Source of the DNA: a virus
Taxonomy: Duplodnaviria > Heunggongvirae > Uroviricota > Caudoviricetes
Direction: 5' to 3' (one strand)
Length of the DNA stretch: 4,471 nt
Virus record (IMG/VR): IMGVR_UViG_2703718812_000015
The notes beneath the pieces were generated by a model. The model worked only from the letters and a program-made list of their open reading frames with translations, ran no database searches and was not told where the DNA came from. The position numbers and the translations under genes are program-made. Shown here in pieces: positions 3,800 through 3,937 of this stretch. How positions within the stretch are numbered: position 1 is the first letter of the stretch; the number at the start of each line of letters is the position of its first letter.

Positions 3800-3937
3800 T
3801 CACCGGCCACAGCAATACCACAATGCCGCAGACCAGCCCCCATCCGCCAGCACCGACATGATTCTGCTGGTGAAATCCACCATCACCACCAGAAACAGCA
3901 GGAGTGCAGCCACAGCCAGGCGCAGTTTTACCGTCAC
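3800..3937 (-). CDS. Possible small hydrophobic peptide (45 codons, GTG start), hypothetical
   Basis: GTG at 3937-3935 overlaps the TGA stop of the TerB-like frame (GTGA overlap), with GGAG 8 nt upstream. Translation (M/V)TVKLRLAVAALLLFLVVMVDFTSRIMSVLADGGWSAALWYCCGR, stop TGA at 3802-3800: basic N-terminus, one hydrophobic helix, Cys-Cys near the C-terminus. Not in the ORF track (below its length cut-off). Confidence 0.3.
   Translation of the reverse strand: MTVKLRLAVAALLLFLVVMVDFTSRIMSVLADGGWSAALWYCCGR

Follow-up and report, generated by a model that had tools for sequence, protein, structure and literature searches.

A 45-codon reading frame in the late region of a defective lambdoid E. 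coli prophage is very probably a frameshifted copy of the phage gene tciB

We analysed a stretch of 4,471 nucleotides (the window; IMG/VR virus record IMGVR_UViG_2703718812_000015), which is the late region of a defective lambdoid E. coli prophage. The gene order in E. coli O103:H2 strain 12009 is Q antiterminator (just outside the window), TerB-family pseudogene, DUF3927 gene, SASA/NanS-p-type esterase gene (3456-1483, 3' of the DUF3927 gene), DUF1378, and DUF826, followed by a class II holin gene (770-555), YdfR/DUF1327 fragments, and, just beyond the window, an IS3 element. The prophage is considered defective because the YdfR pieces in the window are partial pseudogenes according to RefSeq and because of the adjoining IS3 element. 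The slot between Q and the esterase and lysis genes is the one in which Stx phages carry stx. The features of the region around the DUF3927 gene, all on the minus strand, are as follows:

4436..4453, minus strand: terminator-like hairpin followed by a T run, between the Q gene and the tciA remnant (sequence)
3934..4320, minus strand: tciA/TerB-family pseudogene (alignment; PGAP, internal stop; PF05099)
3946..3949, minus strand: GGAG, Shine-Dalgarno-like motif 8 nt 5' of the GTG start, inside the end of tciA (sequence)
3800..3937, minus strand: 45-codon ORF, very probably a frameshifted tciB (DUF3927) allele, WP_001435346.1 (sequence, RefSeq, Pfam, PHROG)
3839..3937, minus strand: codons 1-33, MTVKLRLAVAALLLFLVVMVDFTSRIMSVLADG, in the authentic tciB frame, with the first hydrophobic segment and the DFTSRxMSxLADG core (Pfam, PHROG, conserved in 11 relatives)
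3837..3841, minus strand: G5 run, site of the 1-nt deletion (alignments)
3800..3838, minus strand: out-of-frame tail GWSAALWYCCGR and stop, including the supposed Cys-Cys motif (frame comparison with relatives)
3771..3836, minus strand: authentic tciB C-terminal coding segment LVCGIVVLLWPVIKRNSLHNA and TGA, now out of frame (Pfam, alignments, frame comparison)
3597-3763, minus strand: prophage sRNA STnc100, RF02076 (Rfam, full model, 101.6 bits against a gathering score of 47)
3551..3569, minus strand: terminator-like hairpin followed by a T run, 3' of tciB and STnc100 and 5' of the esterase gene (sequence)

The 45-codon ORF encodes MTVKLRLAVAALLLFLVVMVDFTSRIMSVLADGGWSAALWYCCGR. It runs from a GTG at 3937-3935 to 3800, and the GTG forms an overlapping GTGA with the stop codon of the TerB-like frame 5' of it (TGA, 3936-3934). 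The GTG start, the GTGA overlap, the GGAG 8 nt upstream, and the length of 45 codons had been read from the DNA in a preliminary description and are all present in the sequence. Most of the seemingly empty DNA from tciB to the esterase gene is taken up by STnc100, which lies downstream of tciB, not antisense to it. Copies of this sRNA are transcribed in EHEC, one of them confirmed by Northern blot (PMC5331693), and a 2026 preprint relates STnc100 to the PasD sRNAs. The two hairpins bracket tciA, tciB, and STnc100 3' of Q, and no sigma-70-like promoter was found upstream of this cassette on the minus strand. As judged from sequence, the arrangement is consistent with a cassette that is read through by Q antitermination.

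The family identity of the ORF was established with two family profiles and by its position. Pfam PF13064 (DUF3927) matched residues 3-35 of the 45-mer with 36.9 bits (gathering score 25), covering only positions 2-34 of the 53 positions of the profile, and phrog_1470 ("TciB-like", named after tciB of phage P1) matched residues 1-33 (E 3.1e-18), again only at profile positions 1-33. The remainder of the approximately 54 positions, which comprises the second hydrophobic segment, (W/F)P, and the basic tail, is unmatched, and the window product of 45 aa falls short of the approximately 50-57 aa of the family. It lies directly 3' of the TerB/tciA gene, where family members have their start overlapping or abutting the tciA stop, here through GTGA. 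Annotated tciB genes of P1, 434, Pollock, and SP-076 were recovered by tblastn. The locus is thus a DUF3927/TciB member by descent with a truncated product. The proposal of a small hydrophobic protein gene, coupled to a TerB-like gene and carried as accessory cargo in a prophage, was right. The ORF can no longer be called unannotated: RefSeq has an entry at its exact coordinates ("DUF3927 family protein", WP_001435346.1), and P1 and PHROGs use the name TciB for the family. With entries in Pfam, PHROGs, the P1 annotation, and RefSeq, the gene is a known one, and the window copy is ordinary. NCBIfam had no model for the 45-aa peptide, PADLOC gave no defence-system match for TciB, and no toxin family in Pfam, NCBIfam, or PADLOC matched the ORF.

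Truncation of the product is explained by comparison with closely related loci that differ from the window by a single base at this site. The alleles of E. coli O111 RM9322 (WP_000216636.1) and O55:H7 RM12579 (WP_000216629.1), both of 55 aa, reside in DNA 99-99.6% identical to the window with the same flanks (esterase gene, STnc100, TerB) and contain one more base, as GGGGTG or G6, which yields the full 55 aa. Alignment to the RM9322 locus (99% identical), whose intact product is MTVKLRLAVAALLLFLVVMVDFTSRIMSVLADGVLVCGIVVLLWPVIKRNSLHNA, shows a single base missing in the window. RM12579 is the nearest relative, with three substitutions and one indel over 1012 nt (99.6% identical), and has a G6 run (..ADGGLVCG..) where the window has G5; the lesion is hence a homopolymer contraction. 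Most other relatives have GGGGTG at the deletion site (..ADGVLVCG..). Because one G was lost, the tail GWSAALWYCCGR is out-of-frame read-through, and so is the "Cys-Cys motif" that had been singled out in it. The 12 out-of-frame residues after codon 33 replace the second hydrophobic segment, and the second hydrophobic peak is absent from the hydropathy profile of the window product. The intact form matches phrog_1470 over positions 1-54 of 54 (E 4e-30). The missing part of the gene shares its frame with a 97-aa ORF (3771..4064), whose C-terminus matches PF13064 profile positions 34-50 weakly. This ORF had been dismissed as lacking the features of a protein, yet the authentic TciB C-terminus is encoded by its last 21 codons.

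Frame conservation was assessed in 11 relatives from E. coli prophages, P1, the N4-like phages Pollock and SP-076, the lambdoid phage Fostie, and Klebsiella phage 5. Intact products are 50-57 aa long (n = 11). The first hydrophobic segment is common to all of them, as is the core DFT(S/G)xxMSxLADG(V/A)LV, which hardly varies; the C-terminal part consists of a second hydrophobic segment, with (W/F/R)P at its end, followed by a short basic tail. In 10/10 relatives tested, the family frame runs on without a stop for 18-22 codons 3' of the ADG codon. The frame used by the window after the deletion closes within 1-5 codons in diverged relatives (P1, RW*; Pollock, Y*; SP-076, Y*; Fostie, CWWPE*), and likeness to "WSAALWYCCGR" in this frame is limited to nearly identical DNA. 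The conservation test that had been proposed for the ORF therefore splits it: the first 33 codons are kept as far as P1 and the N4-like phages, the last 12 are not, and the presumed Cys-Cys motif belongs to the latter. Pooled pN/pS in the family frame was 0.38 before and 0.59 after the frameshift site, at low power (55 codons, with an especially variable tail), and the comparison of open and closed frames is more decisive than pairwise dN/dS.

The upstream gene is damaged as well, which had escaped the preliminary description. Its TerB domain matches PF05099 with 32.4 bits (threshold 24.4), its PADLOC match is sub-threshold, and its reading frame is not intact. Compared with intact tciA (143 aa), it is interrupted by a GAG-to-TAG nonsense codon at 4228-4230, and homology starts only at approximately 4314-4325. 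The 5' end and the start codon have accordingly been replaced, together with the upstream tRNA genes: intact loci carry tRNA genes 5' of tciA, as in RM9322, which also has the intact 143-aa TerB, whereas none was found within the window. In O55:H7 RM12579, the same dead tciA adjoins an intact tciB, so decay of tciA preceded the frameshift in tciB, which is a later event limited to one lineage.

The frequency of the frameshifted allele was determined with a 61-nt probe across the deletion in 5,426 complete E. coli genomes. It matched 701 records in 696/5,426 genomes (median of 6 copies per matching genome, approximately 3,760 copies altogether), and the exact G5 allele was the best match in only 15 of these 701 records. 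The same 15 genomes, including O103:H2 strain 12009, are 100% identical to the window over 1012 bases around the ORF. The best match of 648/701 records was in the 95-99% band, as expected for the extra base, and among the matches listed in this band, 45/45 span 62 bases against the 61 bases of the probe. In the protein database, intact forms of 54-55 aa occur on hundreds of contigs; singletons with a frameshift at another position are scattered among the entries and continue in the same alternative frame or in the third one. Several of these variants share "SAALWYCCGR" because they land in the same alternative frame. Small length variants of tciB are numerous in databases (comparison locus L005, 686-859, minus strand, and proteins P0083, P0002-P0006, P0014, and P0034); in one of them, 9 nt are duplicated, which inserts VVM into the first hydrophobic segment. 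Several others are independent frameshift variants at different positions, and some may be draft-assembly errors.

Taken together, the 45-codon ORF is very probably a broken tciB, a known gene for a small phage membrane protein. The allele in the window is most probably non-functional, with the caveat that PGAP scores the ORF as a normal CDS and not as a pseudogene; some residual activity of the 45-aa peptide is conceivable, as neither the first hydrophobic segment nor the conserved core is lost from it. One could argue from the open reading frame, the well-spaced GGAG, the hydrophobic helix, and the CDS annotation by PGAP that the 45 codons encode a complete and functional peptide, single-pass membrane or toxin-like, with a Cys-Cys motif at its C-terminus. 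We consider this very unlikely and largely refuted by the frame comparison, as the tail frame closes within a few codons in diverged relatives, the family profiles reach residues 1-33 (phrog_1470) or 3-35 (PF13064) and not the tail, and only 15 near-identical genomes carry the allele. The toxin-like character suggested earlier finds no counterpart in toxin or defence families, and knock-down of tciB in P1 is neutral (PMC10695390). Type I toxins and other small prophage peptides such as HokD, encoded 3.7 kb upstream in the source genome, resemble the ORF in size, hydrophobic helix, and prophage location, but tciB in the window has neither a sequence match to them nor an antisense-RNA arrangement and is instead translationally coupled to the TerB gene. 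A holin reading was rejected: no holin family in Pfam matched the ORF, the holin gene of the window is a separate one at 555-770, and tciB is not located beside lysis genes in P1 and the N4-like phages.

The lesion itself might be an artefact of homopolymer sequencing or assembly in a gene that is really intact, given its location in a G run and the abundance of singleton frameshift variants from draft assemblies in the protein database. Such an error is extremely unlikely because the G5 allele is present, in a 1012-nt stretch 100% identical to the window, in 15 genomes that were finished independently, in different years and laboratories. Equally, G6 and G5 alleles in otherwise almost identical DNA could be read as the two states of a slippage-prone on/off switch of tciB. 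Phase variation of this kind is hardly credible, since six G are few for a contingency locus, GGGGTG takes the place of a run in most alleles, G5 is fixed in one clonal group and not scattered, and other frameshift variants occur at unrelated positions. Short hydrophobic ORFs do arise by chance, but this one matches curated families significantly and is conserved in phages unrelated to one another, and the probability that it lacks a coding history is practically negligible. A further reading takes TciB to have its own, TciA-independent role and the truncated single-segment form or the G6/G5 tract to be a functional variant or switch and not decay. It draws on intact tciB beside dead tciA in O55:H7-type prophages and on phage 434, which lacks a TerB gene, and appears quite unlikely. 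We thus retain the interpretation of a broken tciB, for which no function is expected in the window because both genes of the pair are damaged.

Intact pairs are found far beyond this prophage. A TerB gene followed by tciB, overlapping or abutting, is present in P1, the virulent N4-like phages Pollock and SP-076, Fostie, Klebsiella phage 5, and many E. coli prophages. Phage 434 (L011, 1441-1599, with other small membrane proteins flanking) and some E. coli prophages (L007, L008) carry tciB without a TerB gene, and TciB may for this reason not be strictly dependent on TciA. A profile search of 1.84 billion representative proteins yielded 108 DUF3927 clusters, nearly all of 45-65 aa, and, among these representatives, no genuine TerB-DUF3927 fusion that would have spoken for a physical link. 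The longer matches are read-through chimeras of gene calling, in which the TerB end is out of frame or the N-terminus is unrelated. P1 TciB (gp075; PF13064, PHROG 1470) is homologous to the window copy over the first 33 residues and is likewise encoded directly after a TerB-domain gene with a stop/start overlap, and in both phage genomes the gene is accessory, moron-type cargo. The window copy differs in being cut by the frameshift at codon 34, without the second hydrophobic segment, the (W/F)P, and the basic tail, in the absence of the third small gene tciC of P1, and in its location in a lambdoid late operon, whereas tci of P1 is in the tRNA/ban region. The names of the P1 tci genes rest on homology only. 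In a CRISPRi screen, tciA, tciB, and tciC of P1 were non-essential and knock-down of tciB had no phenotype (PMC10695390); the tci operon is variably present among P1-like phage-plasmids (PMC9603915), and its genes were handled as untested morons (PMC6799933).

The tight stop/start coupling suggests that the two proteins of an intact pair are made together. Intact tciA and tciB would be transcribed with the Q-dependent late operon and their translation would be coupled. The pair resembles TerB and TerC of the terZABCDEF genes (tellurite, colicin, and phage resistance) in combining a soluble TerB-domain protein with a membrane protein, and TerB of ter operons is reported to bind TerC, an integral membrane protein (Turkovicova 2016, as cited in PMC11003894). 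By this analogy, TciB could be a small inner-membrane partner or anchor of cytoplasmic TciA, and the pair might modulate the state of the membrane or envelope during phage development, or exclude colicins or phages. We put this mechanism forward tentatively, as one possible role: no similarity was detected between TciB (approximately 55 aa) and the multi-pass TerC, and the likeness of the pairs is one that we infer. AlphaFold2 modelled the intact 55-mer as one continuous helix (pLDDT 90.1, pTM 0.50), which neither supports nor excludes a hairpin of two segments.

For annotation, a frameshifted tciB is the more fitting description of WP_001435346.1, and no motif should be seen in its "Cys-Cys" tail. 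The true end of a broken gene can lie in a seemingly featureless ORF of the adjacent frame. The tciA-tciB pair is widespread, with occurrences in temperate and virulent phages of unrelated lineages, and the intact pair, not the window copy, would merit experiments.

Two repeats were observed elsewhere in the window. The NanS-p-like esterase gene contains a perfect 36-nt tandem duplication (3228-3299) that keeps the frame and doubles the 12 residues PVVVPGTGDVTT near the N-terminus of the esterase. A perfect 61-nt direct repeat (27-87 and 285-345, 258 nt apart) lies inside the DUF1327/YdfR reading frame.
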